Part shown: piece after piece, positions 17,351 to 61,724 of the stretch | Numbering within the stretch: position 1 is the stretch's first letter | How the letters are laid out: every line of letters starts with the position of its first letter | Assembly (NCBI RefSeq): GCF_011045215.1 | Contig: NZ_CP049201.1 | DNA from: Escherichia coli | Lineage (GTDB): Bacteria; Pseudomonadota; Gammaproteobacteria; Enterobacterales; Enterobacteriaceae | Length of the DNA stretch: 64,000 bases | Strand: one strand, 5' to 3' | Notes under the pieces: model-generated | What the model was told of the DNA's origin: nothing | What the model saw: only the letters and a program-made list of their open reading frames with translations | The model's database searches: none | Made by a program: the position numbers and the translations under genes

Positions 17351-17667
17351 GCATAATTTCTTCAGTCCTTTCCATTCAAACGTGAAATCAATAAGTTCAT
17401 CAGGGACATCGCAAACAATATGAAGACGGATTTCTTCTCTGCCGTGACTAAAATGCGAATTATTTAGTACAAAAAAAGCGGCGCACCTTGTTCTTTCCCA
17501 GATTCCTAATATGGCAACTTTAAGTTATCGCCGTCTATACTTATAGAAATTTCATCAGGGGTGACGTAAATAGAATTTTTTTCATCCTCAATTGCCCATA
17601 ACTGATTAATAAAAAAGTATTTTTTTCATCTAATAAAAAATTATCACATGTAGTAAAATTATTAATA

Positions 17668-18327
17668 TCAAAAAAAATCATCAGCACAATTAATTTTTAA
17701 ATTTAAAAAATAAAGAAAAATATTATTGATTGATTTGAGTGTAAACCACTTGTCATTAACAAATTTATAGCCAGATGATTTTATAAAATAATAATTATCT
17801 CCTGGTATAAAGGCATACATATCATTTAAGGTTATACTCAACAAAAAACTACGACCTGGTTTAATAGTATTCCACCGTTCAGGATTCGTATTAATTTCAA
17901 AAGGACATGAACCACCTAAGTAGTCCAACGTGATATTCCCAGAGTTGATTCTGAATGGTTTTTTGCATATCGCATCATATTCATCTCCTTTTCCATCTTT
18001 TACTTTCATAGGTAGATAATATTTAGAAAAAAAATACGTGGTAGAGCTATTGTTAGTAAAGGTTATGTTAGCAAAAATCCTGTTATTTTTTTTACTCATA
18101 GCTAATTGAGCATTGACATCCGCTATATAATTTATATGATTACATTTTTTCTTACACTCATCATAATTTTCGATAGGATAAATTAATGGCCTTCCTTTGA
18201 TATCTCTCTCAAGCCCAAACCCGTATTTTTTTATTAAAACCATTTCATCCGCAGTCGATTGAAAGGAATAGAAAAATATAATATTTACGATTGTCATTAT
18301 TATGATTTTTTTTATAGCTTGCAGCAT
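17668..18327 (-). CDS. Hypothetical exported protein (219 aa) with N-terminal signal peptide; AT-rich island ORF
   Basis: Hydrophobic N-terminus IIIMTIVNIIFFYSFQSTADE; strongly AT-rich; no family recognised. Confidence 0.45.
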   Translation of the reverse strand: MLQAIKKIIIMTIVNIIFFYSFQSTADEMVLIKKYGFGLERDIKGRPLIYPIENYDECKKKCNHINYIADVNAQLAMSKKNNRIFANITFTNNSSTTYFFSKYYLPMKVKDGKGDEYDAICKKPFRINSGNITLDYLGGSCPFEINTNPERWNTIKPGRSFLLSITLNDMYAFIPGDNYYFIKSSGYKFVNDKWFTLKSINNIFLYFLNLKINCADDFF

Positions 18328-18350
18328 TAATATATTTCTCGACTTATTAG

Positions 18351-18653
18351 TTAATGGAGAAGTGCTTTTTCTAATTCCGCTATTTTTTTCTTAACTGAAT
18401 TGCTTAATATTTCATCATTAATCGAGTCTATCTCACTTTCAATTAATCTTATTTCAAAATATCTTTCTATGTTATATGCATTCTCAAATATTTGATCTTT
18501 TTGTTTAGAGATCAGTTTAGTTGCAATACGGATATGTTCGTCATATGAAACTTCATCCTCTTTGCACGTTGAATATTTATCAGTAGTTGTATAATTCTGT
18601 GACCACATACCACCTTTTTTATTATCCCCATAATACCACTGAATATGAGACAT
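18351..18653 (-). CDS. Hypothetical small protein (100 aa), candidate immunity or accessory protein
   Basis: ATG at 18651-18653 with GGAAAGGA upstream; AT-rich; inside the VgrG island. Confidence 0.4.
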   Translation of the reverse strand: MSHIQWYYGDNKKGGMWSQNYTTTDKYSTCKEDEVSYDEHIRIATKLISKQKDQIFENAYNIERYFEIRLIESEIDSINDEILSNSVKKKIAELEKALLH

Positions 18654-18691
18654 TTCATGACATAAAGTAGCAACATGAGAATCCTTTCCCG

Positions 18692-19141
18692 TTACTGGAT
18701 TTTTTTGCCATCTCTATACTCAAATTTTGCGCCTATGTTAATTATATAGGGCATATCCTTACTTGGGCTGACGAATGCTGCAAATTCATTACAACCTGTA
18801 TAATTTATAAAACTGCTCATTGTTAAATCATTAGCTATAATCATTAATCTTCTCACACCATCCATCATAAGAAATCTAGCATTCATGCGCCTAACTGTAT
18901 TATGTCCATATTTTCTTATATTAACTTCCTTATTTCCTTTAACACCAAAGATCTTACTGAAATCATATTCCTCCTGTGCTCCCCATCTCAAAAGATCATC
19001 TGCTCTTTTTATCAAAACCAACTTTTGTGCCTTACGAACCTTATCAATCATTATTTTAAAATGATCAGTTATTTTTTGCTCTTTCACACATTCTTCTGGC
19101 TCTGGCTTTGGTTGTCCAGAAGTTTGATTATTATCGTCCAT
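18692..19141 (-). CDS. Hypothetical protein (149 aa from the ATG with an RBS; the longest ORF runs to 19198)
   Basis: GGAAGGA then ATG (MDDNNQTSGQ...) at 19141; AT-rich; no recognisable domain. Confidence 0.4.
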   Translation of the reverse strand: MDDNNQTSGQPKPEPEECVKEQKITDHFKIMIDKVRKAQKLVLIKRADDLLRWGAQEEYDFSKIFGVKGNKEVNIRKYGHNTVRRMNARFLMMDGVRRLMIIANDLTMSSFINYTGCNEFAAFVSPSKDMPYIINIGAKFEYRDGKKIQ

Positions 19142-19327
19142 AGTGTCCTTCCATTGAGAGAAAATCATCATTCGCAAATAGCAACTAAAAAGCAGCATTA
19201 CTTGACCTTTCCCTGCATAACAATATTTATAAAATAATACGTTTTATGATCTCACCTTGGGCTCCCAACAAGATAATTTCAGTTTTAAAGACTTTCACGA
19301 AAAAATATAGAAATACCTCACCACCCT

Positions 19328-19618
19328 TCACTTACCAATTAATCTCACAGGAAATCCAACTTCCTTACCACAAATACAATCCCAAGTAACATTTCCCAAA
19401 ATTTTTGATACTTTAGGCTGCAATGGCATTATTGACATTATAAATTTATCAAGTTCTTCGCTATATTTAATTCCCTTTATATTTCTTATTATTGATATTC
19501 TAGCAGTAAAGATAGCCGTCTCTCCATCTACACTAAAAGTGTAATTACAATTTTTTGTAATCTCATCAAATTCAACCGATAACAAATCAATATTATGGTT
19601 TGTAAACACTATGCCCAT
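19328..19618 (-). CDS. Putative cognate immunity protein (96 aa) for the upstream T6SS toxin
   Basis: Start overlaps the toxin stop by 26 nt, a typical toxin-immunity arrangement; small and AT-rich. Confidence 0.5.
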   Translation of the reverse strand: MGIVFTNHNIDLLSVEFDEITKNCNYTFSVDGETAIFTARISIIRNIKGIKYSEELDKFIMSIMPLQPKVSKILGNVTWDCICGKEVGFPVRLIGK

Positions 19619-21032
19619 TCCATACCTCCTTAAATTCCTGTTCAGTCATCAGATATCGACTCCCTTGATATGGATCATATATTATCACATTCCCAGCATC
19701 ATCAACACCCTTAACAAGTACCCAATGTCCTACTTTACTTCCAGAATCCCACATCATTGCTCCCCATGAACCAGTATTACTGAGGGCATATAAACTAGAT
19801 TCGCTCACTGCATTCCCTTCCCAGCCGACATCAAATTTATTAAGCTTGTTTGCCAGCGACGTCATAGATGTTAATTCTGTTCCAATTACATTTTGCGTGA
19901 CAAAAATATACCTATCCCTAAGCAACATTTCCCCACAGGCCGCTCCACAGCCTGTTAAAGTCAATTGCTTTATTACATTTGAATCTAAAACCTCATCAAA
20001 TACTGTCCAATTGCCACCAGCACCACCTTCTAAAACTACCGGCTCTACAAATACTTTCCCAGAGATATTTTCTTCTGGTATTTTTGCGGGTATCATAAAG
20101 CCCCATAAAAAGCTGGAAAAATGCTCCAGAGCAATCTGATCACCATTATTTGCATCCATTATCATTTTTTTAAGTGCATCCCATGCTTGCCCATTTATCA
20201 ATGAATCACTAATATTAAATAAAGCCTGTTCTTTTTCGTTTAAATTTATATTTGCCTGTTCACATAACCCATCTTCGCCTATCGGGCAAGCAACCGTTGC
20301 CGTTGCCGTATCTAACAGAGCATCGAATGTAACTAAGGCTAAATCCGCCACACCATGTAAAGTGGTGATTGCTCCATTCCCCATTTGAGTAAGTGTGTTC
20401 TCTCCAAACCATTCTCTAATTTGAGATTTATCTCCTTCAATACCATTCCTGAGAGATTCTCTGATATTCTTTATTGAAAAAAACTCCCCCCATGATTGGT
20501 CAGGATCTTTTATTTGGAATAAATCATTTTTAACCTCAGGTGAAATATCTCCGTCAAAAATATTACCAACAGAGAGGAGATCCTTCAGAAGCAGTAAATC
20601 GTGTATTACTTCAGCAGTCCTTTCATAATTAAAACTTCTATCAATGACAGAAATCATTGGTGATTTTATTTTGGTATATAATTTACCAAGGCAGTTATGG
20701 TTATTAATCCCAACAACTGAACCATGATAAGCAACAGGTTTCCCTTCTATTGTTACAGTCGGACTTCCCGTTAAAATAACACAGTCACCCGTTCCTTGAG
20801 ATGTACCGGATATGACACCTTTACCGGCATTACTTTGAGTTCCAGCAATCACTGAACCAACATTTAAAGCTCTGCATCCACGCGCCCATACCGTTGAACT
20901 GTACTGTCTTTCACTATCTAAAGTCTGGTAACTGTCAAAAGGAACCTTGTAACCTCCTACTTCACATACATCTGGTGAAGTACACACGACTCTAAATCTA
21001 GATTCACCATCCCCGATATGATAGTTACCCAT
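19593..21032 (-). CDS. T6SS polymorphic toxin: N-terminal PAAR-like (DUF4150-type) domain, C-terminal papain-like cysteine peptidase (C39-like) domain; 479 aa
   Basis: N-terminus VCTSPDVCEVGG...GSPTVTIEGKPVAYHGS resembles PAAR-like spike-capping domains. C-terminus has a CGAAC motif at residues 362-366 and GHWVLV...D...IYDP at 436-453, a Cys/His/Asp arrangement like peptidase C39 folds. Follows vgrG and the DUF2169-like gene. Confidence 0.6.
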   Translation of the reverse strand: MGNYHIGDGESRFRVVCTSPDVCEVGGYKVPFDSYQTLDSERQYSSTVWARGCRALNVGSVIAGTQSNAGKGVISGTSQGTGDCVILTGSPTVTIEGKPVAYHGSVVGINNHNCLGKLYTKIKSPMISVIDRSFNYERTAEVIHDLLLLKDLLSVGNIFDGDISPEVKNDLFQIKDPDQSWGEFFSIKNIRESLRNGIEGDKSQIREWFGENTLTQMGNGAITTLHGVADLALVTFDALLDTATATVACPIGEDGLCEQANINLNEKEQALFNISDSLINGQAWDALKKMIMDANNGDQIALEHFSSFLWGFMIPAKIPEENISGKVFVEPVVLEGGAGGNWTVFDEVLDSNVIKQLTLTGCGAACGEMLLRDRYIFVTQNVIGTELTSMTSLANKLNKFDVGWEGNAVSESSLYALSNTGSWGAMMWDSGSKVGHWVLVKGVDDAGNVIIYDPYQGSRYLMTEQEFKEVWNGHSVYKP

Positions 21033-22071
21033 AATATTTTTTCCCTATACATTCAGGAATAATACAACTCAGCACTCCTTCTTTCATTCCAAAAAAATCA
21101 GGTATTGTTAATCTCCAGGTAAGGTATATTTCCTGTCGACTTAAATCGATAACCATTGTATCCGCAACAGGTAAGAACATATGTGATGTATTATGCTTGG
21201 TTTTTAATATAAGTACAGGTCGTATACCTGGCAATTTTGTCTTAACAACCTGTTCAAATTTAAAAAAACCTTCAAGAGAGATGTTTTCATCGCCAGAGAG
21301 AAACCCCGTGTATATCATATCCGGATGAGCACTATTGTAGAACCGCTCATCAAAATCATCCGGCAAATAGGGATAGCGCTTTTCACGCCATACTTCATTG
21401 TAGGTTCCTGCATACTGGAGGCGACTTTTCCACCATCGAGATACAGGGCCAACACCTTGAAAAAAGTCAGATTCCCCATTAAAAATGGTAGCGTTTTCTG
21501 ACAAAGCAGAGCTGGTTATTTGTGGGAGTTTATATTGACAACTTGTATTAAGTTGGGAAATATCAGGATAATATCCACAACCTACAGGGTTTGCTGAAAA
21601 AACCAATTTCTCCATACCATCTGGTTGCCAAATACCACCGTAAGCAAGCTCATAGCGTAGAGGAATATTAATAATTTTATCTGGTAAGCTCATCTGCCAA
21701 CGATTTCGCTCATATTGTAAGTAGCGGACACCAGATAAACTCAGTTCTTTAGAAAAACTATTAACCCTCACACAAGCCTTCCACTGAGACTTATCCCCTG
21801 AAGGGGCATGAGCACTACCTGTCACGTGAATATCTGTATTTCTTTTACAAAGAACTAAGTCTGTTTCAGATTTTAGACTACTTGTTTCAGGCTCCCCATA
21901 GTATTCATCAGACATGGACAATTCTCTTTGAAATTCAGCAAGATCAGCATAAAATCCATTTTTAATTCGCAATGACATTTTAATAGCAATAACATCAAAC
22001 AAAAGACCATAACGACCATATTTTTCAAATGACAACAAAGGAAATGGCGTGTTATTTTTCATTTCTATCAT
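21025..22071 (-). CDS. DUF2169-like T6SS adaptor/chaperone protein (348 aa)
   Basis: Called mainly by context: lies between vgrG and a PAAR-like toxin, and its stop overlaps the toxin start by 8 nt (translational coupling). Confidence 0.5.
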   Translation of the reverse strand: MIEMKNNTPFPLLSFEKYGRYGLLFDVIAIKMSLRIKNGFYADLAEFQRELSMSDEYYGEPETSSLKSETDLVLCKRNTDIHVTGSAHAPSGDKSQWKACVRVNSFSKELSLSGVRYLQYERNRWQMSLPDKIINIPLRYELAYGGIWQPDGMEKLVFSANPVGCGYYPDISQLNTSCQYKLPQITSSALSENATIFNGESDFFQGVGPVSRWWKSRLQYAGTYNEVWREKRYPYLPDDFDERFYNSAHPDMIYTGFLSGDENISLEGFFKFEQVVKTKLPGIRPVLILKTKHNTSHMFLPVADTMVIDLSRQEIYLTWRLTIPDFFGMKEGVLSCIIPECIGKKYYG

Positions 22072-22177
22072 GCTTATTGATCCCTGAATAAGTCATGCTA
22101 TGATTAATTTAAACAATCACAAATGGTGATTCACAGGCGTATAAAGCAAATACAATCACCATGTTTTATATTCTGCA

Positions 22178-24160
22178 CTATCCGTTCAGATGAATATCTT
22201 TTCCTTTAATATCTACAGGACCGGTAGCCTCAAATAGAAACTCCGTCCCCCGTATTATTATCTTTCCTGTTTTCTCCAGTTTTATGGAACAAGTCCCGCT
22301 CTCTCCCTGCCCACAAATTAGCTCAATACTGTCCCCAGATATGATTTTTGTACCATGCTCAACTTTCAGTTCGTAATTATCACCTATTTTAATACTCTGT
22401 TTTTTGACGACTTCTTCGGTATCAGTTCCCGTCACCTTGCTTGTCTGGTTGTTATTCACAACCTTGTGCCGGTCATTTTTTATCGTGAGATGCTGATCGT
22501 TCGCTACCGTCACTTTCTGGTCATGACCACCTTCCTTTTTGCTCCCCACATTCACCGTCTGGCCCTTCACCACCGTTATCTTCTGGTTGTTACCGATGGT
22601 TTCCGTATGGTCATGTTTCACATCCGTTGTCCGGTCGTTGAGCACCTCCGTATCCATGTTCTTCTGGGCATGGATATACACCTGCTCATTACTGGTGGCG
22701 TCTTCAAACCGTAGCTCGTTAAATCCGCTTCCTTTATAGGTTTTTGACCGGATGGTCATCTGCGTCTTCGTTCCCGGCAGGTCGCCCGGGGAGCGGTTAT
22801 CTTCATGGTAGGTCCGTCCCGTGACGATGGGCTGGTCCGGGTCGCCGTTCAGGAAGTCAACAATCACCTCCTGGCCCACCCGCGGTATCGCCAGGTTACC
22901 GAACCCCGGCCCCGCCCACGCCTGCGATACCCGCACCCAGCATGAACTCGCCTCCGTCATCCCGTGATAACGGTCCCAGTGGAACTTCACCCGTACCCGG
23001 CCATGTTCGTCGCAGAATATCTCCTCACCCTTCGGCCCGGTCACAATGGCACTCTGCGGCCCGTCCACCTTCGGTTTGCTTTGCAGCCGTGGACGCCACG
23101 TCCGGTCTGCCGGTATCACCTCTAACTGATTTCCCAGCGTGGTTCCCCTCCCCTGGCTGCCGTGCAGCGCCTGCGGCTGGCTTCCTGACAGTATGCTCTG
23201 TACCACCTGCCATTCACGGTTCAGCATCTTCTGCGGATGCCCCGTCAGCGTAAACCGCGTTCCCGGCCACAGCTTCGGTGAATTACTCTGCCCTGTGGCC
23301 TTTTCCGCATCACTGCGCAGGCTGTCCATCTGGTACAGCGTGAAATCCTTGCCGTGCTGCTCATCCTTGAACCTTCCCGGATAATCAAATATCTCGTACT
23401 GCGCCAGCTGTCCGTTCAGGTTCTCACCCTGCTGCTCATACATCCCCGGCCAGTCCGGCACCTTAAACGTGTAATCCTGACTCTGCACCGACGACGGGCG
23501 GACATGCGCCTCATAACGGAACGTACTGAGACACTCCGTCTCCGCTCCTGCCGATGTGTCCGGGTTAAACGGAAGCTCTCCCGCCTGTGACAGCCCCGCC
23601 ACATCGTCGCACAGCGTCAGCTTCTGCTCCGGGCTGTCCGCCGCAAACCGCTCAAAGAAGAAAATCCCCTCCTCCGCCCACAGCCGCGCCAGAAACGCCA
23701 GGTCGCTCTCTCCGTACTGGACACAGAACTCCCGCGCCGGATGGTCTTCATAAAACAGCGGCGTCCACTCCGTGACGCCGTTCTCATTCAGTAACGTGGC
23801 CGATATCGTCCGGATATCCTGCTGCTGGAAGATACGGAAGTTCTGCCGCAGCCCGCACCGCCATAACGGCGGCTCAATACGCAGGTGATAACGCATCTGC
23901 CAGCCATTGTTCTCCTGCATGCCAAAACCCGCCACCACGCCGGTGACATAACGCAGCGGGATGACGCCCTGCCAGATGGTCAGCGTCGCCTTCTTCTCCA
24001 GCAGCATCTCCGCCGTCTGCATAAAAGAGTCGCTGGCAACATCCACACTCATCACAAACGGATATGACTGGTTCTGGATTAACCTGAAGCTCACCACTGC
24101 AAAGGTGTCCGGCTCCTGGCCGTCAACCTCCAGCGTAAAGCGCAGACCTTTTAAGGACAT
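22178..24160 (-). CDS. vgrG: Type VI secretion spike protein VgrG (660 aa)
   Basis: N-terminus MSLKGLRFTLEVDGQEPDTFAVVSFRLIQ and central gp27/gp5-like regions (IFDYPGRF, HWDRYHG, VGQEVIVDFLNGDPDQPIVTGRTYH) are hallmark VgrG motifs. The C-terminal third is AT-rich and repetitive. Confidence 0.88.
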   Translation of the reverse strand: MSLKGLRFTLEVDGQEPDTFAVVSFRLIQNQSYPFVMSVDVASDSFMQTAEMLLEKKATLTIWQGVIPLRYVTGVVAGFGMQENNGWQMRYHLRIEPPLWRCGLRQNFRIFQQQDIRTISATLLNENGVTEWTPLFYEDHPAREFCVQYGESDLAFLARLWAEEGIFFFERFAADSPEQKLTLCDDVAGLSQAGELPFNPDTSAGAETECLSTFRYEAHVRPSSVQSQDYTFKVPDWPGMYEQQGENLNGQLAQYEIFDYPGRFKDEQHGKDFTLYQMDSLRSDAEKATGQSNSPKLWPGTRFTLTGHPQKMLNREWQVVQSILSGSQPQALHGSQGRGTTLGNQLEVIPADRTWRPRLQSKPKVDGPQSAIVTGPKGEEIFCDEHGRVRVKFHWDRYHGMTEASSCWVRVSQAWAGPGFGNLAIPRVGQEVIVDFLNGDPDQPIVTGRTYHEDNRSPGDLPGTKTQMTIRSKTYKGSGFNELRFEDATSNEQVYIHAQKNMDTEVLNDRTTDVKHDHTETIGNNQKITVVKGQTVNVGSKKEGGHDQKVTVANDQHLTIKNDRHKVVNNNQTSKVTGTDTEEVVKKQSIKIGDNYELKVEHGTKIISGDSIELICGQGESGTCSIKLEKTGKIIIRGTEFLFEATGPVDIKGKDIHLNG

Positions 24161-24178
24161 AAATACCTCTCAGACATA

Positions 24179-24463
24179 TCAGCCTATATTTACCGTACCG
24201 CCACCAATGACCACGCCGCCGCAGTCAACAGCATCACCGCTTCTGGCGGCGGGCAGGCCGTCAATAAAGACGGTTGAAGAACCTCTGGCGATTTTACGGG
24301 GATGAGGGGGATGCTTCGGTTTAGCATGCGGCGTCAGCGGATCTCCCTGACGGGCTGCGGGGAGACCATCGATAAAAACGGTGGATGACCCGGCGGTGAT
24401 GACGGTCTCGTAATAACCGTCGTGCTGAGTGCCTTTGTCGGTGAGTTTGGCTGCTAAAGGCAT
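24179..24463 (-). CDS. PAAR-repeat protein (T6SS spike tip), 94 aa
   Basis: Two copies of SSTVFIDGLPAAR(Q/S)GD plus an N-terminal AAKLTD motif; 18 nt upstream of vgrG on the same strand. Confidence 0.75.
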   Translation of the reverse strand: MPLAAKLTDKGTQHDGYYETVITAGSSTVFIDGLPAARQGDPLTPHAKPKHPPHPRKIARGSSTVFIDGLPAARSGDAVDCGGVVIGGGTVNIG

Positions 24464-25002
24464 AATTTCTCCTGTTCAGAATTTCTACAGCAGCAGGTTT
24501 CAAAAATCCGGAGAAATATTCAACGAAATATTAATCACTTCACCGGATATTCTGATACGTACCTTCACTGGTCTATTTAAGTAATACAAATTGTTGGCGT
24601 GTATTAAGTTCCATTTTGTTCTCCTTAATTATGTAAGGAGTATTTGATCATGTATAAGCAATAAAAACAGCTTCAGGAAATAAGGAATATCGCAATTTTT
24701 AAACATAAAATGCGAATCGTTCAATACAAAAAAGCAGCGTTGCGTAATCTTTCCCTGATTAAATACGCTACCGCCCTACCCTGATGACATGATCTGCACT
24801 GCACTATCATATCGACATGTTTCTCTACATGCGAAAAGATGTTTTATTTTCGGATTATATTAAATTGACATTTCATATAAAAAACGAAATTACATCAATC
24901 ATATAAATAATTGTACCAACTTTAATTACTATTCATAGCAAACAAATGGATATCCAGTTAACTACGCCAGTGATTCATTAACATTAACCTCCGGCATTAT
25001 TG

Positions 25003-25620
25003 TTAAATAATGACATTCCTTTTTAATACTTCTTGTAATTTCGGTAACTGACATACTGCATCAGCAATCGCACTGATATTCGTGGCATTATCCTGAAACC
25101 ATTCATGCCCAGGCCCCCATGTGCGCATAGTGCAAAGATAACAGTCCACCAGCGTTAGTTGCTCACCAAACGCATAAGGTTCAGCGGTCAATTGTGAATT
25201 CAGCCAGATATAAAGCGATTTACGATATTCAATAACATTCTTCTTTAACTGTTCAGGTGCGTCAGATGCCCAACGCTCAGGGTAATCGGCGAAAGTGAAT
25301 GTTGGATAGACATTAGCAACCAGCCAGACCAATAGCCGTTGAAACTGCTGACGTTCGGCGCGCCCAACCGGTGGCGCAAGGTCCGGGCGACGATCGAGAA
25401 CCATCAATGCAATCGCCGCTGTCTCCGTCATAATCTCGTCATTTTCCAGAGCCAGTGTCGGAACCTGACACAACGGGTTCAGGGTTTTCAATAACTCGCG
25501 TGAAGTTCCCTCGTGGTCAAAACCACTGACATCAACGAACTGATAAGGAATATCAGCTAGTGTTAGCATCAGCTCACTGATTGTAGAGCCCCATCCGGGT
25601 ACGCCATACACCTTAATCAT
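25003..25620 (-). CDS. yncG: Glutathione S-transferase homolog YncG
   Basis: 205 aa, MIKVYGVPGWGSTISELMLTLADIPYQFVDV (GST N-terminal fold). Confidence 0.85.
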   Translation of the reverse strand: MIKVYGVPGWGSTISELMLTLADIPYQFVDVSGFDHEGTSRELLKTLNPLCQVPTLALENDEIMTETAAIALMVLDRRPDLAPPVGRAERQQFQRLLVWLVANVYPTFTFADYPERWASDAPEQLKKNVIEYRKSLYIWLNSQLTAEPYAFGEQLTLVDCYLCTMRTWGPGHEWFQDNATNISAIADAVCQLPKLQEVLKRNVII

Positions 25621-34770: not shown

Positions 34771-35171
34771 TGTAGTGATTTTGCACGCAGCACGTACTGT
34801 CAGAGAAATCAGTGCTCTGACAGTACGCAAGATCTTCTCATACTCTCCAGGTTTACAACATTATCCTTAATATTTACTTCTTTTTGCTGGTATCTACATT
34901 GAAATGAGTAGAAAACATCCCCCTACTGTCGTCTATACAAACAGCTTACTGATTCAAAGGGAATCTTGTTTTCACATTTTTCTATCATGAATACTTTATA
35001 CGCGCGGGAGTCTATAAATGCTTTATACTTTCAAGGAATAACGTAAATATAAAAAGATGGCGTGAAGTATATGCATGGCAGGATGTTTGCAACCTCCTTG
35101 ATGACGCTGCCCCATTGAAATTGCAAACCCCGCCCTGGTTATCTTGCCCATTTATCATGCAAAACAGATAA

Positions 35172-35981
35172 TTATAGGCCTCTGAATACCTCAGAAAGAT
35201 TGAATTTTTTATAGTCCCTCTCTTGAATATTTCCATTTGAAATCAATCGATTCATCTCTTCAACAAAATAATTTATATCATCACACTTGTTATTATCCGG
35301 AAGATCTGAGTAGTTATAATTCCACCATTTTATTCTCAACAGTTCATCAATAACATTTGAATCAAACCTAAATCTGATTATTTTTGCAGGAACTCCTGCA
35401 ACTATGGCATATGGGGGCACATCTTTGGTAACAACGGAATTGGCAGCAATAACAGCACCATCACCTATTACGATGCCACCTTTCAATACAACATCATTTC
35501 CTATCCAGACATCATTTCCTATAATCGGATTTTCAGGTTTGGTAATGAATGGTTTCAATGTCCAGCTACGTTCAAACTCACTCATAGCAAACTTATCAAA
35601 TTCACCGTTATAAGTCATCATGTGAGTAGTAAAACGATTCAAAGGATGATTTCCACCCATTATTTTTACATTTGATGCAATACTACAAAATCGACCTATA
35701 CGTATATTCCCTGAAAAATGACAGGTCGGAAATGAAAAAGCGCCGACACTGGAGAAATTTTTTACAGGCATTGTTGAATATTCTTCAGCAATAACATTAT
35801 CTTCAATTGTTATCTTGTCACCTTTTGAGAAAAGAAATAAATTCCTTTCTTTATAAGACTTCTTCCCCTTATGATTTAAAAAGATTTTATTATCCATACA
35901 AAACTCAAAGTGTTTTTTCGTCCATCTGAAGGTAAGGGTTTTATTTTTATCTTCCGTGAATTTGTACAATTGAACTTTCAT
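35172..35981 (-). CDS. Hexapeptide-repeat xenobiotic acetyltransferase (XAT family; resembles Vat streptogramin A acetyltransferases / CatB); start uncertain (alternative ATGs would give about 241 or 199 aa)
   Basis: C-terminal block IGNDVWIGNDVVLKGGIVIGDGAVIAANSVVTKDVPPYAIVAGVPAKIIRFRFDSNVIDELLRIKWWNY closely parallels the recalled VatD/SatA core; NHPLNRFTTH His region also present; AT-rich gene. Confidence 0.7.
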   Translation of the reverse strand: MKVQLYKFTEDKNKTLTFRWTKKHFEFCMDNKIFLNHKGKKSYKERNLFLFSKGDKITIEDNVIAEEYSTMPVKNFSSVGAFSFPTCHFSGNIRIGRFCSIASNVKIMGGNHPLNRFTTHMMTYNGEFDKFAMSEFERSWTLKPFITKPENPIIGNDVWIGNDVVLKGGIVIGDGAVIAANSVVTKDVPPYAIVAGVPAKIIRFRFDSNVIDELLRIKWWNYNYSDLPDNNKCDDINYFVEEMNRLISNGNIQERDYKKFNLSEVFRGL

Positions 35982-36190
35982 TGTTAATACTTCTACTTAT
36001 AAATTATTAGTTTAATAACAATACTCTAAAGCCTTATGCTAATCAACTGTGACAGGATGAAAAATCGCCATCAAACATTTAGTCTAATTTTTACGCTAGT
36101 TATTAATGTAATCATTCTAATACTTAACCGCCATTAAACTCAGAACCTAAAACGATAGTGGCCGTCCTATAACAGCCACTAACATCTAAC

Positions 36191-47111: not shown

Positions 47112-48284
47112 ATGCGTCTGTTTTCTGTTCCTCCACCCACGCTACTGGCGGGGTTTCTGGCGGTATTAATTGGCTACGCCAGTTCAGCGGCAATAATCTG
47201 GCAAGCAGCGATTGTCGCCGGAGCCTCCACTGCACAAATCTCTGGCTGGATGACGGCGCTGGGGTTGGCAATGGGCGTCAGTACGCTGACTCTGACATTA
47301 TGGTATCGCGTACCTGTTCTCACCGCATGGTCAACGCCTGGCGCGGCTTTGTTGGTCACCGGATTGCAGGGACTAACACTTAACGAAGCCATCGGCGTTT
47401 TTATTGTCACCAACGCGTTAATAGTCCTCTGCGGCATAACGGGACTCTTTGCTCGTCTGATGCGCATTATTCCGCACTCGCTTGCGGCGGCAATGCTTGC
47501 CGGGATTTTATTACGCTTTGGTTTACAGGCGTTTGCCAGTCTGGACGGTCAATTTACGTTGTGTGGAAGTATGTTGCTGGTATGGCTGGCAACCAAGGCC
47601 GTTGCGCCGCGCTATGCGGTAATTGCCGCGATGATTATTGGGATCGTGATCGTTATCGCGCAAGGTGACGTTGTCACAACTGATGTTGTCTTTAAACCCG
47701 TTCTCCCCTCTTATATTACCCCTGATTTTTCGTTTGCTCACAGCCTGAGCGTTGCACTCCCCCTTTTTCTGGTGACGATGGCATCGCAAAACGCACCGGG
47801 TATCGCAGCAATGAAAGCAGCCGGATATTCAACTCCTGTTTCGCCATTAATTGTATTTACTGGATTGCTGGCACTGTTTTTTTCCCCTTTCGGCGTTTAT
47901 TCAGTCGGTATTGCGGCAATCACCGCGGCTATTTGCCAAAGCCCGGAAGCGCATCCGGATAAAGATCAACGTTGGCTGGCAGCTGCCGTTGCAGGCATTT
48001 TCTATTTGCTCGCAGGTCTGTTTGGTAGTGCCATTACCGGGATGATGGCTGCCCTGCCCGTAAGTTGGATCCTGATGCTGGCAGGTCTGGCTCTGCTAAG
48101 TACTATTGGCGGCAGTTTGTATCAGGCGCTGCATAATGAGCGTGAGCGAGACGCGGCGGTGGTGGCATTTCTGGTAACGGCAAGTGGATTGACGCTGGTC
48201 GGGATTGGTTCTGCGTTTTGGGGATTAATTGCCGGAGGCGTTAGTTACGTGGTGTTGAATTTAATCGCTGACAGAAACCGATAA
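47112..48284 (+). CDS. ydcO: BenE-family transporter YdcO
   Basis: MRLFSVPPPTLLAGFLAVLIGYASSAAIIW; 390 aa multi-TM protein. Confidence 0.85.
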   Translation: MRLFSVPPPTLLAGFLAVLIGYASSAAIIWQAAIVAGASTAQISGWMTALGLAMGVSTLTLTLWYRVPVLTAWSTPGAALLVTGLQGLTLNEAIGVFIVTNALIVLCGITGLFARLMRIIPHSLAAAMLAGILLRFGLQAFASLDGQFTLCGSMLLVWLATKAVAPRYAVIAAMIIGIVIVIAQGDVVTTDVVFKPVLPSYITPDFSFAHSLSVALPLFLVTMASQNAPGIAAMKAAGYSTPVSPLIVFTGLLALFFSPFGVYSVGIAAITAAICQSPEAHPDKDQRWLAAAVAGIFYLLAGLFGSAITGMMAALPVSWILMLAGLALLSTIGGSLYQALHNERERDAAVVAFLVTASGLTLVGIGSAFWGLIAGGVSYVVLNLIADRNR

Positions 48285-57334: not shown

Positions 57335-58975
57335 TCACACCGTAGCGAAACTAACTGGTTCACCCGCTCCGCGAGGTTCTGCCAACACAGATTGTTTGTT
57401 CAGACGGAATACGTCCACCGCCTCAGTTAATTGTGCCGCCTGTTCTTCAAGGGACACCGCCGCCGCTGAGGCCTCTTCTACCAGAGAAGCATTCTGTTGC
57501 GTCACCTTATCCATTTCAGAAATCGCCTGGCTAACCTGCGTTATGCCCCTACTTTGCTCATCCGAGGCGGCGGCAATTTCCTGCATGATATGTGTGACAC
57601 TCGCGACGGCATCAACAATAGTGCTCATGGTTTTCCCGGCCGTTGCCACCTCATCCGATCCCAGGTCAATTAACCTGACTGATTCACTGATCAAGCCTTC
57701 AATTTCTTTTGCCGCCTGGGCGCTGCGGCTTGCGAGTGTCCGTACTTCGCTGGCGACAACGGCAAATCCACGCCCTTGCTCACCCGCTCGCGCAGCTTCA
57801 ACGGCAGCATTCAGTGCCAGAATATTCGTCTGGAAAGCAATACTGTTGATGACGGCGGTGATCTCAGAAATTTTCTTCGAACTCGTGGAGATAGCGCCCA
57901 TCGTTTTTACTACACCGGAAACCGTCTGCCCGCCATCGCTGGCTTTAATAGAAGCCTCTTGCGCCAGTTTGCTGGCATAATGCGCGTTATCCGCATTCTG
58001 TTTCACCGTCGCAGTGAGTTGCTCCATGCTGGCGGCAGTTTGTTCGATAGCCGCCGCTTGTTCTTCGGTGCGAGATGACAGGTCCGCATTGCCAGCTGAA
58101 ATTTCGCTGGTGCCACGATAAATCTCTTCCGCACCCTGTCGAACAGTCCCTACGGTCATCCCCAGTGAATGCTGCATTTGCTGTAAATGACGACTTAAGC
58201 GACCGATTTCATTACGACCCGCCGGTTCATCCTTCATCGTCAGATCGCCACTAGCGATTTTTTCAATCCGTTGTGCGGCATGTTGCAGTGGACGAATGAC
58301 GATCCGACGTAGCACCATAAATGTTATCAGCGTCATGACCAGGGCAAGCACAAACGCACCAATCATGAACATCCCGCCCAGGCGGGTGCGCTGATGGGCC
58401 AGTTCCGCCAGTTGGTTGGCTCTGGTGCTACGTATCTTAACGGCTTTGTTCAAAATATCGGTATAAGCATTATCCAGCGTTCGGATCTGCTCACTTTCAT
58501 GATTGATAATTGCTTCAAACATACCATTTTTGGCATATTTCAACATAGGTTGCATACCCGTGATATAAGCCTGAAAGCGTTGATTTAATTCAGTGTCGAG
58601 GGCTTCATCAGCAGGTGTTTTCACCGGCCGATTCTGATAAGCACGATAACCTTGCTGCGACTGTTTAATCTCCGATTCGGCTTGCGCAATATTTCGCTTC
58701 ATTGCTTCCATTTCCGCAATACGACTCGCAGCCCCGGCCTGAATCATATTGATCCGGGCTGAACGCAAAAAATCTGAACTGTTCGCTAACCCGGTCCGAA
58801 TCTCAATCTCCGCAGTAACATCACGCTGATCGCGATCGGCCTGCCAGAGGAAATAGCCAGCCAGGGCTGAACTTAATGCGAATAGAACTAAGATACCGCC
58901 AAGAATGCAGGCAAATAACGGAACCAGCCTGATGTGATGCAAAAAACCTAATCGCTGTGAGGGAGTTGTATTCAT
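57335..58975 (-). CDS. trg: Methyl-accepting chemotaxis protein III (ribose/galactose sensor) Trg
   Basis: 546 aa MCP with two TM segments, HAMP and the conserved signalling domain. Confidence 0.9.
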
Positions 58976-59261
58976 TACCGTTGTCTCTCGTCCAGGTTTA
59001 CTCCTGATAGAAAGTCATCGGCACTTGACGGTAATTACTTATGACCAAATACCTCTTTGCGTCACATTTTTACAACAATTATTGCAGAGAAAATTAATGC
59101 TATTGGAATGAAGAGAGTAACGAATGGCTAAACCGAATGACGAAAAATTCTGGAAAACAGCACGCAATTTCGTGAAGTGATTATTTTCGTCCCTAAGGAA
59201 ACCTCATAGGATGCCTGCGGGTGCCTGAGACTTTCTGTTTTCAGGCTAACCGGGAATCAGA

Positions 59262-59306
59262 AAGACGAAGGCCCCGACCGATATTTCTATCAACCGAGGC
59301 CAACGA

Positions 59307-59317
<11 letters not shown>
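59262..59317 (-). ncRNA. sokB: Antisense RNA SokB (antitoxin of the hokB type I TA locus), approximate
   Basis: Placed by the canonical hok/sok layout: antisense to the mokB leader and start. Coordinates from recalled K-12 spacing, not an independent motif. Confidence 0.45.
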
Positions 59318-59514
<197 letters not shown>

Positions 59515-59585: not shown

Positions 59586-59759
59586 TCAGTTAGTGCATGT
59601 TTTTTTCGATGCACTAATAGAACCATCATTACAGACAAATTTGCCGCCTGCCGTACAGTGTGAGATCCCCCCTTTCGAACCAGAACAGGGTTTGCGCCCG
59701 GCATCGGCATAAAAGGAAACAAGCGTTCCCATAAACAAAATAAGTGCCAGTTTTTTCAT
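59586..59759 (-). CDS. ydcA: Small exported Cys-containing protein YdcA (57 aa)
   Basis: Hand translation: MKKLALILFMGTLVSFYADAGRKPCSGSKGGISHCTAGGKFVCNDGSISASKKTCTN. Confidence 0.7.
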   Translation of the reverse strand: MKKLALILFMGTLVSFYADAGRKPCSGSKGGISHCTAGGKFVCNDGSISASKKTCTN

Positions 59760-59929
59760 ATAACCTCCATGGTTTATCGAATCTTATGTTCGATTTGAAC
59801 GTTATACGCTGGTTTATTTTGATACCGTTGATGAGATCAAAGATCGGGTGAATTGATTAAAAATAAGGCAGATGGACGTATGGGCAAGGATTATGGTTTT
59901 ATTTGTCATACAAATAAATATAATAGGCG

Positions 59930-59993
59930 CTTCCGATGTAGACCCGTATTCTTCGCCTGTACCACGGGTCGGTTTTAGTACAGGCGTTTTCTT
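59930..59993 (+). ncRNA. rydC: Hfq-dependent small RNA RydC
   Basis: cttccgatgtagacccgtattcttcgcctgtaccacgggtcggttttagtacaggcgttttctt matches the recalled RydC sequence; convergent with cybB as in K-12. Confidence 0.7.
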
Positions 59994-60003
59994 TAAATAT
60001 CCT

Positions 60004-60534
60004 TCAGGAACGTTTACGCGGCATCATGCGTAGAAGTGTGTTGTCCTTCCAGAAATAGTGGTGTGCCAGTGCAACCGCAGCGTGCAAACCGATGACAAAA
60101 TATCCCAGATTCGCCAGCGTTTCATGCCACGACTTTAAGCTATCTACCCGTTCGAAATTGGCCTCTGAAGCGTAAGGCATCGTCAAACCAAACGCAAACC
60201 ACGGGTTGCCCAGGTTATACATCATCACCAAACCAATCACTGGCAGCGCAATAAACAGGAGATAAATCACCAAATGTCCCAAATGCGCCAGTCCCGTCAT
60301 CATCGGTTTCGGCTTAGGTATAATCGGCGGGGTTGGGTATTTCAGTCTTAACAAAAGACGAACCACCATCAGCACGAGAATTGAGATGCCACAGGAAACA
60401 TGAATCATGTTGATGAGCGGCCGATCGCTACGTGGGAAGAAACCCCGAAACTCCATTGCGCAATACGCTGCGATAACCAGCAAAAAGACCAGCCAGTGAA
60501 TGCTGATTTGTAACCTTGAGTATTTATTTTCCAT
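60004..60534 (-). CDS. cybB: Cytochrome b561 CybB (176 aa)
   Basis: MENKYSRLQISIHWLVFLLVIAAYCAMEFRGFFP; conserved His ligands. Confidence 0.9.
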   Translation of the reverse strand: MENKYSRLQISIHWLVFLLVIAAYCAMEFRGFFPRSDRPLINMIHVSCGISILVLMVVRLLLRLKYPTPPIIPKPKPMMTGLAHLGHLVIYLLFIALPVIGLVMMYNLGNPWFAFGLTMPYASEANFERVDSLKSWHETLANLGYFVIGLHAAVALAHHYFWKDNTLLRMMPRKRS

Positions 60535-60722
60535 AACATTTCCTGCTTTAACATAATTTTCCGTTAACATAACGGGCTTTTCTCAAAATTTCATTAAATA
60601 TTGTTCACCCGTTTTCAGTACGTTACGTTTCACTGTAAGAATGGAGATTGCCCATCCCACAATCCTGGGCTAAGCCTGGAAAGGATCAATTTTCATCCGA
60701 ACGTTCCTGACAGGAGAAAACC

Positions 60723-61724
60723 ATGAGTAAAGTTGGTATTAACGGTTTTGGTCGTATCGGTCGACTGGTGTTGCGTCGATTACTTGAAGTCAAAAGCAAC
60801 ATAGACGTTGTCGCTATTAATGATCTTACTTCCCCAAAAATTCTCGCCTATCTGCTGAAACATGATTCAAACTATGGTCCGTTCCCCTGGAGCGTTGATT
60901 TTACGGAAGATTCACTTATCGTTGATGGGAAAAGTATCGCGGTTTACGCCGAAAAAGAGGCTAAAAATATTCCGTGGAAAGCGAAAGGTGCAGAAATCAT
61001 TGTCGAATGTACTGGCTTTTATACCTCCGCCGATAAATCGCAGGCGCATCTTGATGCTGGTGCGAAGAAGGTGTTGATTTCCGCTCCTGCCGGTGAAATG
61101 AAAACCATCGTTTATAACGTTAATGACGACACTCTGGATGGCAACGATACCATTGTTTCCGTGGCGTCATGCACCACTAACTGCCTTGCGCCGATGGCCA
61201 AAGCCTTGCATGACAGTTTCGGGATAGAAGTCGGCACGATGACGACCATTCATGCCTATACTGGCACCCAGTCACTGGTGGATGGCCCGCGTGGTAAAGA
61301 TTTACGTGCTTCACGCGCCGCGGCAGAAAATATCATTCCCCACACTACGGGCGCGGCAAAAGCCATTGGTCTGGTGATCCCGGAACTGAGCGGCAAACTG
61401 AAAGGTCATGCGCAACGCGTGCCGGTGAAAACAGGTTCGGTCACTGAACTGGTATCGATTCTCGGAAAAAAAGTGACTGCCGAAGAGGTGAATAACGCAC
61501 TTAAACAAGCAACCACCAATAACGAGTCATTTGGTTATACCGATGAAGAAATAGTCTCTTCCGATATCATTGGCAGCCATTTCGGTTCGGTGTTTGATGC
61601 CACGCAAACGGAAATTACCGCCGTGGGCGATTTACAACTGGTGAAAACGGTCGCCTGGTACGATAACGAATATGGCTTCGTCACGCAGCTTATTCGCACC
61701 CTCGAAAAATTCGCTAAACTCTGA
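60723..61724 (+). CDS. gapC: Glyceraldehyde-3-phosphate dehydrogenase GapC, apparently intact (333 aa)
   Basis: Rossmann [10 protein letters not shown] and catalytic [10 protein letters not shown] motifs in one uninterrupted frame. Confidence 0.88.

Follow-up and report, generated by a model that had tools for sequence, protein, structure and literature searches.

The window, i.e., the whole 64-kb stretch of Escherichia coli DNA that was analyzed, was scanned against Rfam 15 at gathering thresholds and gave two hits, one of which was the small RNA (sRNA) RydC. The RydC match (RF00505) lay on the plus strand at 59930-59993, reached 92.5 bits (gathering score, 48; E = 5.2e-17), and spanned positions 1-64 of the 64-position model, i.e., the full model. 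The matched sequence, CTTCCGATGTAGACCCGTATTCTTCGCCTGTACCACGGGTCGGTTTTAGTACAGGCGTTTTCTT (64 nt), was identical by alignment at 64/64 nt to rydC of K-12 MG1655 (b4597). The K-12 gene, an ncRNA labelled "small regulatory RNA RydC", lies on the minus strand at 1491442-1491506 and is flanked by cybB (+) and ydcA (+); its annotation runs one T further, to window position 59994. The gene was present in one copy in the window. An earlier note, made from the sequence alone, had attributed these 64 nucleotides to RydC; the covariance model placed the family exactly on the claimed interval and the K-12 alignment gave the same identity. The stretch is thus almost certainly the chromosomal rydC of E. coli (probability of about 0.96, given jointly for this identity and the whole explanation set out below), which is an already known, textbook and annotated sRNA gene. 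The features of the locus and of other parts of the window are collected in Table 1.

Table 1. Position, strand, and basis of assignment of the window features discussed in the text.
Feature	Position	Strand	Basis
PAAR-like toxin-domain protein, C-terminal Peptidase_C39 domain, 479 aa	19593-21032	-	
DUF2169 protein	21025-22071	-	
VgrG, 660 aa	22178-24160	-	
Hexapeptide-repeat transferase ORF, 269 aa	35172-35981	-	
trg	57335-58975	-	ORF and K-12 annotation
hokB/mokB/sokB locus	about 59219-59514		
ydcA, 57 aa, divergent upstream neighbor	59586..59759	-	ORF, K-12 annotation
15-bp palindrome ATTTGT-CAT-ACAAAT (-29 to -15), candidate YieP (GntR/FadR family) operator	59901..59915	.	Motif, conservation
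-10 hexamer TATAAT of the rydC sigma-70 promoter (-11 to -6)	59919..59924	+	Direct location
rydC, 64-nt RydC sRNA gene	59930..59993	+	Rfam RF00505, K-12 b4597 identity
5' seed, single-stranded, target-pairing, CUUCCGAUGUA	59930..59940	+	Present in window; role in PMC4337610, PMC6755755
Pseudoknot helix S1, 7 bp	59941..59970; arms 59941-59947 (GACCCGU), 59964-59970 (ACGGGUC)	+	Rfam consensus structure
Pseudoknot helix S2 = terminator hairpin, 9 bp	59954..59986; arms 59954-59962 (CGCCUGUAC), 59978-59986 (GUACAGGCG)	+	Pairing, MFE
3' U-rich tail UUUUCUU(U), terminator end and Hfq proximal-face binding site	59987..59994	+	Sequence; role from RydC-Hfq crystal structure (PMC4337610)
cybB, cytochrome b561 / superoxide oxidase, convergent downstream neighbor	60004..60534	-	ORF, K-12 annotation, close genomes
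gapC	60723-61724	+	ORF and K-12 annotation

Genomic setting and distribution of rydC

The gene order trg, sokB-mokB-hokB, ydcA (-), rydC (+), cybB (-), and gapC (+) was that of K-12 in reverse. The ydcA start codon lies on the other strand, 170 nt upstream of the rydC transcription start (+1), and on the other side 10 nt separate position 59993, where the RNA ends, from the stop codon of the convergent cybB (60004-60006); the placement of rydC between ydcA and cybB, convergent with the latter as in K-12, had been proposed in the earlier note and was upheld by both the ORFs and the K-12 annotation. The cybB ORF as called extends over 60004-60570, and the start of the 176-aa K-12 protein maps to 60534. 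The ydcA-cybB intergenic region shared 99% identity with K-12, with two differences only, at 59868 (G in the window and C in K-12) and 59905, both of them upstream of the RydC RNA. Of 5426 complete E. coli genomes, 5411 had one rydC copy, which in 4063 of them fell in the band of at least 99% identity, which for a 64-nt query means an identical sequence. No feature was listed under the rydC match in the PGAP-annotated E. coli genomes, and this missing label is an annotation gap rather than counter-evidence.

Several side observations were made in the same neighborhood. An Rfam sok match (RF01794, 109.7 bits) was located at 59219-59370 on the plus strand, the same strand as the ORFs of the mokB/hokB region at 59307-59474 (+) and 59365-59514 (+), while sokB as annotated in K-12 corresponds to about 59261-59317 on the minus strand. 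It thus seems that RF01794 recognizes the leader of the hok mRNA in its sense orientation and not the antisense Sok RNA, and the strand of the match is not to be taken as that of sokB. Two tandem Rfam sok matches were identified beside rydC in E. coli E69 (locus L004, 1742-1894 and 2238-2389) compared to one in the window and in K-12, which suggests that the hok/sok locus is duplicated in some E. coli. The gapC gene was an intact 333-aa glyceraldehyde-3-phosphate dehydrogenase ORF in the window, is named "gap" in the closest genomes, and is a pseudogene (b4493) in K-12 MG1655.

The window also differed from K-12 further away from rydC. The segment at ~17450-25004 had no megablast match in the compared K-12 region, where K-12 has yncH/rhsE/ydcD/yncI/ydcC; it encodes the VgrG, DUF2169, and PAAR-like proteins of Table 1 together with several further ORFs that gave no Pfam match, and has the appearance of an orphan vgrG/effector island for type VI secretion at the Rhs site. 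A stretch of about 1.3 kb between patD and yncL (34877-36189), containing the hexapeptide-repeat transferase ORF, was absent from K-12. IS609 (insQ/yncK), which in K-12 occupies 1.75 kb between ydcL and ydcO, was in turn missing from the window, leaving a clean alignment junction at 48283/48284.

Pseudoknot fold and conservation among homologs

The published fold of RydC is an H-type pseudoknot (Antal 2005 and Frohlich 2013, cited in PMC4337610; RydC-Hfq crystal structure, PMC4337610), and its two helices were recovered in the window as S1, pairing nt 12-18 with nt 35-41, and S2, pairing nt 25-33 with nt 49-57. Homologs were collected by searching the 18-mer CTTCCGATGTAGACCCGT against one-genome-per-species contigs, which returned 11 loci; these were checked with Rfam, and ten homologs were aligned. 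One locus (L005) ends inside rydC. An exact 18-nt match at 583-600 of a further locus (L006; CANQMQ010000010.1, an "uncultured Clostridia bacterium" MAG) had no Rfam RydC match and was rejected, probably as a chance 18-mer, of which the ~300-Gb collection (about 600 Gb over both strands) should contain several, or else as possible contamination. The exact 18-mer scan recovered no Klebsiella or Enterobacter homologs. The covariation set was small, consisting of seven distinct sequences from Escherichia, Salmonella arizonae, and five Citrobacter.

Pairing was evaluated by explicit pair counting on the pseudoknot string. All nine S2 pairs were 100% paired in the seven distinct sequences, with none broken and 4/9 changed on both sides, and the seven S1 pairs were likewise 100% paired and invariant (7/7), so that S1 provides no covariation for or against the helix. 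Overall, 99.2% of the pseudoknot cells were paired compared to 26-44% in controls in which the pairing partner was shifted by 1-3 columns. An optional outer pair, A11-U42 in other strains, is A-G in both the window and K-12. Among the aligned homologs from Escherichia, Salmonella, and Citrobacter, nucleotides 1-18 did not vary, a circular result because identity at these very positions was the criterion by which the homologs had been collected; conservation of the seed and of the S1 5' arm is therefore not independent evidence. The RNAs were 63, 64, or 66 nt long as a result of 1-nt indels, with gaps at alignment columns 20, 35, and 44. The pseudoknot attributed to RydC in the earlier note was hence supported by pairing potential and compensatory S2 changes, in addition to the crystal and solution work of PMC4337610.

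The S2 3' arm GUACAGGCG is followed by UUUUCUUU, giving the layout of a Rho-independent terminator at the RydC 3' end. A consensus terminator scanner did not list S2, whose 15-nt loop exceeds the 3-8 nt limit of the program, and reported instead a 6-bp hairpin at 59955-59969 that was discarded as an artefact of this limit since it mixes S2 and S1 arms; S2 is the real terminator. The nested minimum free energy (MFE) of the 64 nt was -14.4 kcal/mol (z = -0.48 versus shuffles) with S2 as the sole stem found, and was dropped as a structure test because ViennaRNA cannot represent pseudoknots, which accounts for an energy no better than that of the shuffles. The UU steps T23/T24 and T45/T46 were invariant among the homologs and correspond to Hfq rim contacts (PMC4337610). 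With the 3' U-tail and these UU steps present as sequence determinants, RydC of this strain would be expected to bind Hfq and to depend on it for stability, in line with the Hfq binding demonstrated for E. coli and Salmonella RydC (PMC4337610). The Hfq dependence named in the earlier note is established knowledge for RydC of the identical sequence (PMC4337610).

Promoter, candidate YieP operator, and alternative explanations

The rydC promoter has been described as having a "perfect -10 box ... no obvious -35 box" (PMC11340327). This was consistent with the window, where the TATAAT hexamer had no -35-like hexamer upstream at spacers of 15-19 and where a consensus promoter scan found no site at rydC, a silence explained by the missing -35. 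The hexamer was kept in 11/12 taxa, the exception being Citrobacter koseri (TATACT), and the upstream alignment of these 12 taxa showed a conserved palindrome block just 5' of the -10, with the flanks and regions further upstream diverging. In C. koseri the central triplet of the palindrome is inverted (ATG, not CAT).

In E. coli, deletion of yieP, encoding a GntR-family repressor, de-represses a rydC'-lacZ fusion about 20-fold, and RydC is barely detectable in wild-type K-12 during standard growth (PMC11340327). The reverse complement of the palindrome, ATTTGTATGACAAAT, matched the YieP ChIP-exo motif atTTGTaTGAcaAAT (PMC7642389) at 15/15 positions on the minus strand and was the only match to this motif with up to two mismatches in the 64-kb window. 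These data point to a YieP operator at 59901-59915 overlapping the promoter spacer, where a bound repressor would occlude RNA polymerase. In the text consulted, PMC11340327 defines no rydC operator, and no YieP ChIP-exo peak coordinates for rydC/ydcA were found for PMC7642389.

The intergenic difference at 59905 falls inside the palindrome, such that the window with G matches the motif at 15/15 positions compared to 14/15 in K-12, which has A and therefore one imperfect half-site. The 45-nt promoter segment of the window (59885-59929, which includes 59905) was identical in 3870/5415 E. coli genomes (about 71%) and is the majority form in the species. The studies of rydC regulation were all done in K-12, i.e., with A in this half-site. 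It is conceivable, if rather improbable, that the K-12 G-to-A change weakens YieP binding and that most natural E. coli repress rydC more tightly, damping cfa activation more, than K-12 suggests. The slightly new element of the analysis would be this explicit candidate operator and the G/A polymorphism that sets it apart from the K-12 sequence.

Other explanations of the locus were weighed against a functional rydC. That the gene is rydC by descent but a silent or functionless relic in this strain would agree with the near absence of RydC expression reported for wild-type cells in the laboratory (PMC11340327), yet the RNA does not differ from the functional K-12 allele, a perfect -10 box and an intact candidate operator are present, and the promoter segment is the one shared by 3870/5415 genomes; moreover, the RNA is conserved in three genera and shows compensatory changes, a sign of purifying selection, which makes a relic very unlikely. 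Even less probable was the possibility that the hairpin serves mainly to terminate the convergent cybB, the RydC match being incidental. S2 does lie only ~17-50 nt past the cybB stop codon, and no other terminator-like site for cybB was found in 59930-60004. However, on the minus strand S2 is followed by AAGAAUACGGG, an A-rich tract rather than a U-tract, which would make a poor intrinsic terminator for cybB, the U-tract being on the plus strand. Termination of cybB would also leave the promoter, the operator, and the 5' seed unexplained, and a full-length covariance-model match at E = 5e-17 is far beyond chance and is not incidental.

A conserved stretch of this kind could instead encode a small protein, in place of or besides the sRNA, and an ATG-initiated 53-aa ORF (59872-60033, plus strand) does cover all of rydC. 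The 1-nt indels among the homologs would shift any such frame, the substitutions are paired across S2 instead of following codon position, the would-be N-terminal coding region upstream of the core promoter is unconserved, and the K-12 annotation has no CDS there; a coding function was accordingly regarded as barely credible. The likeliest function of the locus was the known one, i.e., that of a YieP-repressed, Hfq-dependent sRNA stabilizing cfa mRNA. Its transcription, YieP binding at 59901-59915, Hfq dependence, and regulatory outcome would follow by analogy with the literature on the identical K-12 sequence.

Target pairing, proposed mechanism, and related sRNAs

The best-documented RydC target is the long sigma-70-dependent cfa mRNA isoform, where pairing masks an RNase E site and stabilizes the message (PMC6755755, PMC4337610) and also counters Rho-dependent termination (PMC11340327). 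Since cfa is outside the window, pairing was computed on K-12 cfa DNA with RNAduplex: RydC nt 3-13 formed an 11-bp duplex with positions -109 to -99 of the K-12 cfa 5' UTR, including one G-U, at -17.7 kcal/mol, an energy that 1/500 shuffled seeds equalled with cfa. No exact complement of the seed was found in the K-12 cfa UTR, a search that failed because of this single wobble. The paired region holds the RNase E cut G-100/A-99 and the position of the compensatory mutation (PMC6755755). The computed register sets RydC C4 opposite cfa G-100, and PMC6755755 names the pair C4G/G101C, a numbering difference of one nucleotide. Other reported targets include yejABEF, csgD (PMC3985669), and pheA and trpE (cited in PMC11340327).

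In the mechanism proposed from these elements, rydC would be transcribed on the plus strand from a sigma-70 promoter with a perfect -10 and no -35, which YieP (GntR/FadR-type) would normally keep off, most likely via the 59901-59915 palindrome. The 64-nt transcript is predicted to terminate at the S2 hairpin and U-tail, and to fold into an H-type pseudoknot (S1 of 7 bp and S2 of 9 bp) leaving the first ~11 nt single-stranded, while Hfq would protect the RNA by binding its 3' U-tail and both UU steps in the loops. The free seed could then pair with the long cfa isoform at about -109 to -99, which would mask the RNase E site and increase the level of cyclopropane fatty acid synthase, with weaker repression of pheA, trpE, csgD, and yejABEF as reported.

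Beyond correct annotation, the finding of rydC matters little. Through RydC, a YieP signal is linked to acid tolerance and to how much cyclopropane fatty acid the membrane contains, and recognizing the gene keeps a locus that PGAP usually leaves unlabelled from being taken for empty sequence or for a spurious small ORF. A mildly useful by-product is that a candidate YieP operator was placed precisely on the spacer of the rydC promoter, with a natural G/A polymorphism between this strain and K-12.

The closest known relative, K-12 rydC, also has the TATAAT -10 box and both pseudoknot helices in common with the window. The RydC RNAs of Salmonella and Citrobacter share the seed (nt 1-18 being required by the search), S1, the UU steps, the U-tail, TATAAT, and the upstream palindrome with that of the window; they differ in S2 at four base pairs through compensatory changes and in loop lengths by 1-2 nt. 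Two other sRNAs act on the same long cfa isoform, with ArrS using an overlapping site and also activating cfa (PMC6755755), in contrast to CpxQ, which represses it. Both are of unrelated sequence, are encoded at unrelated loci, and have no pseudoknot.
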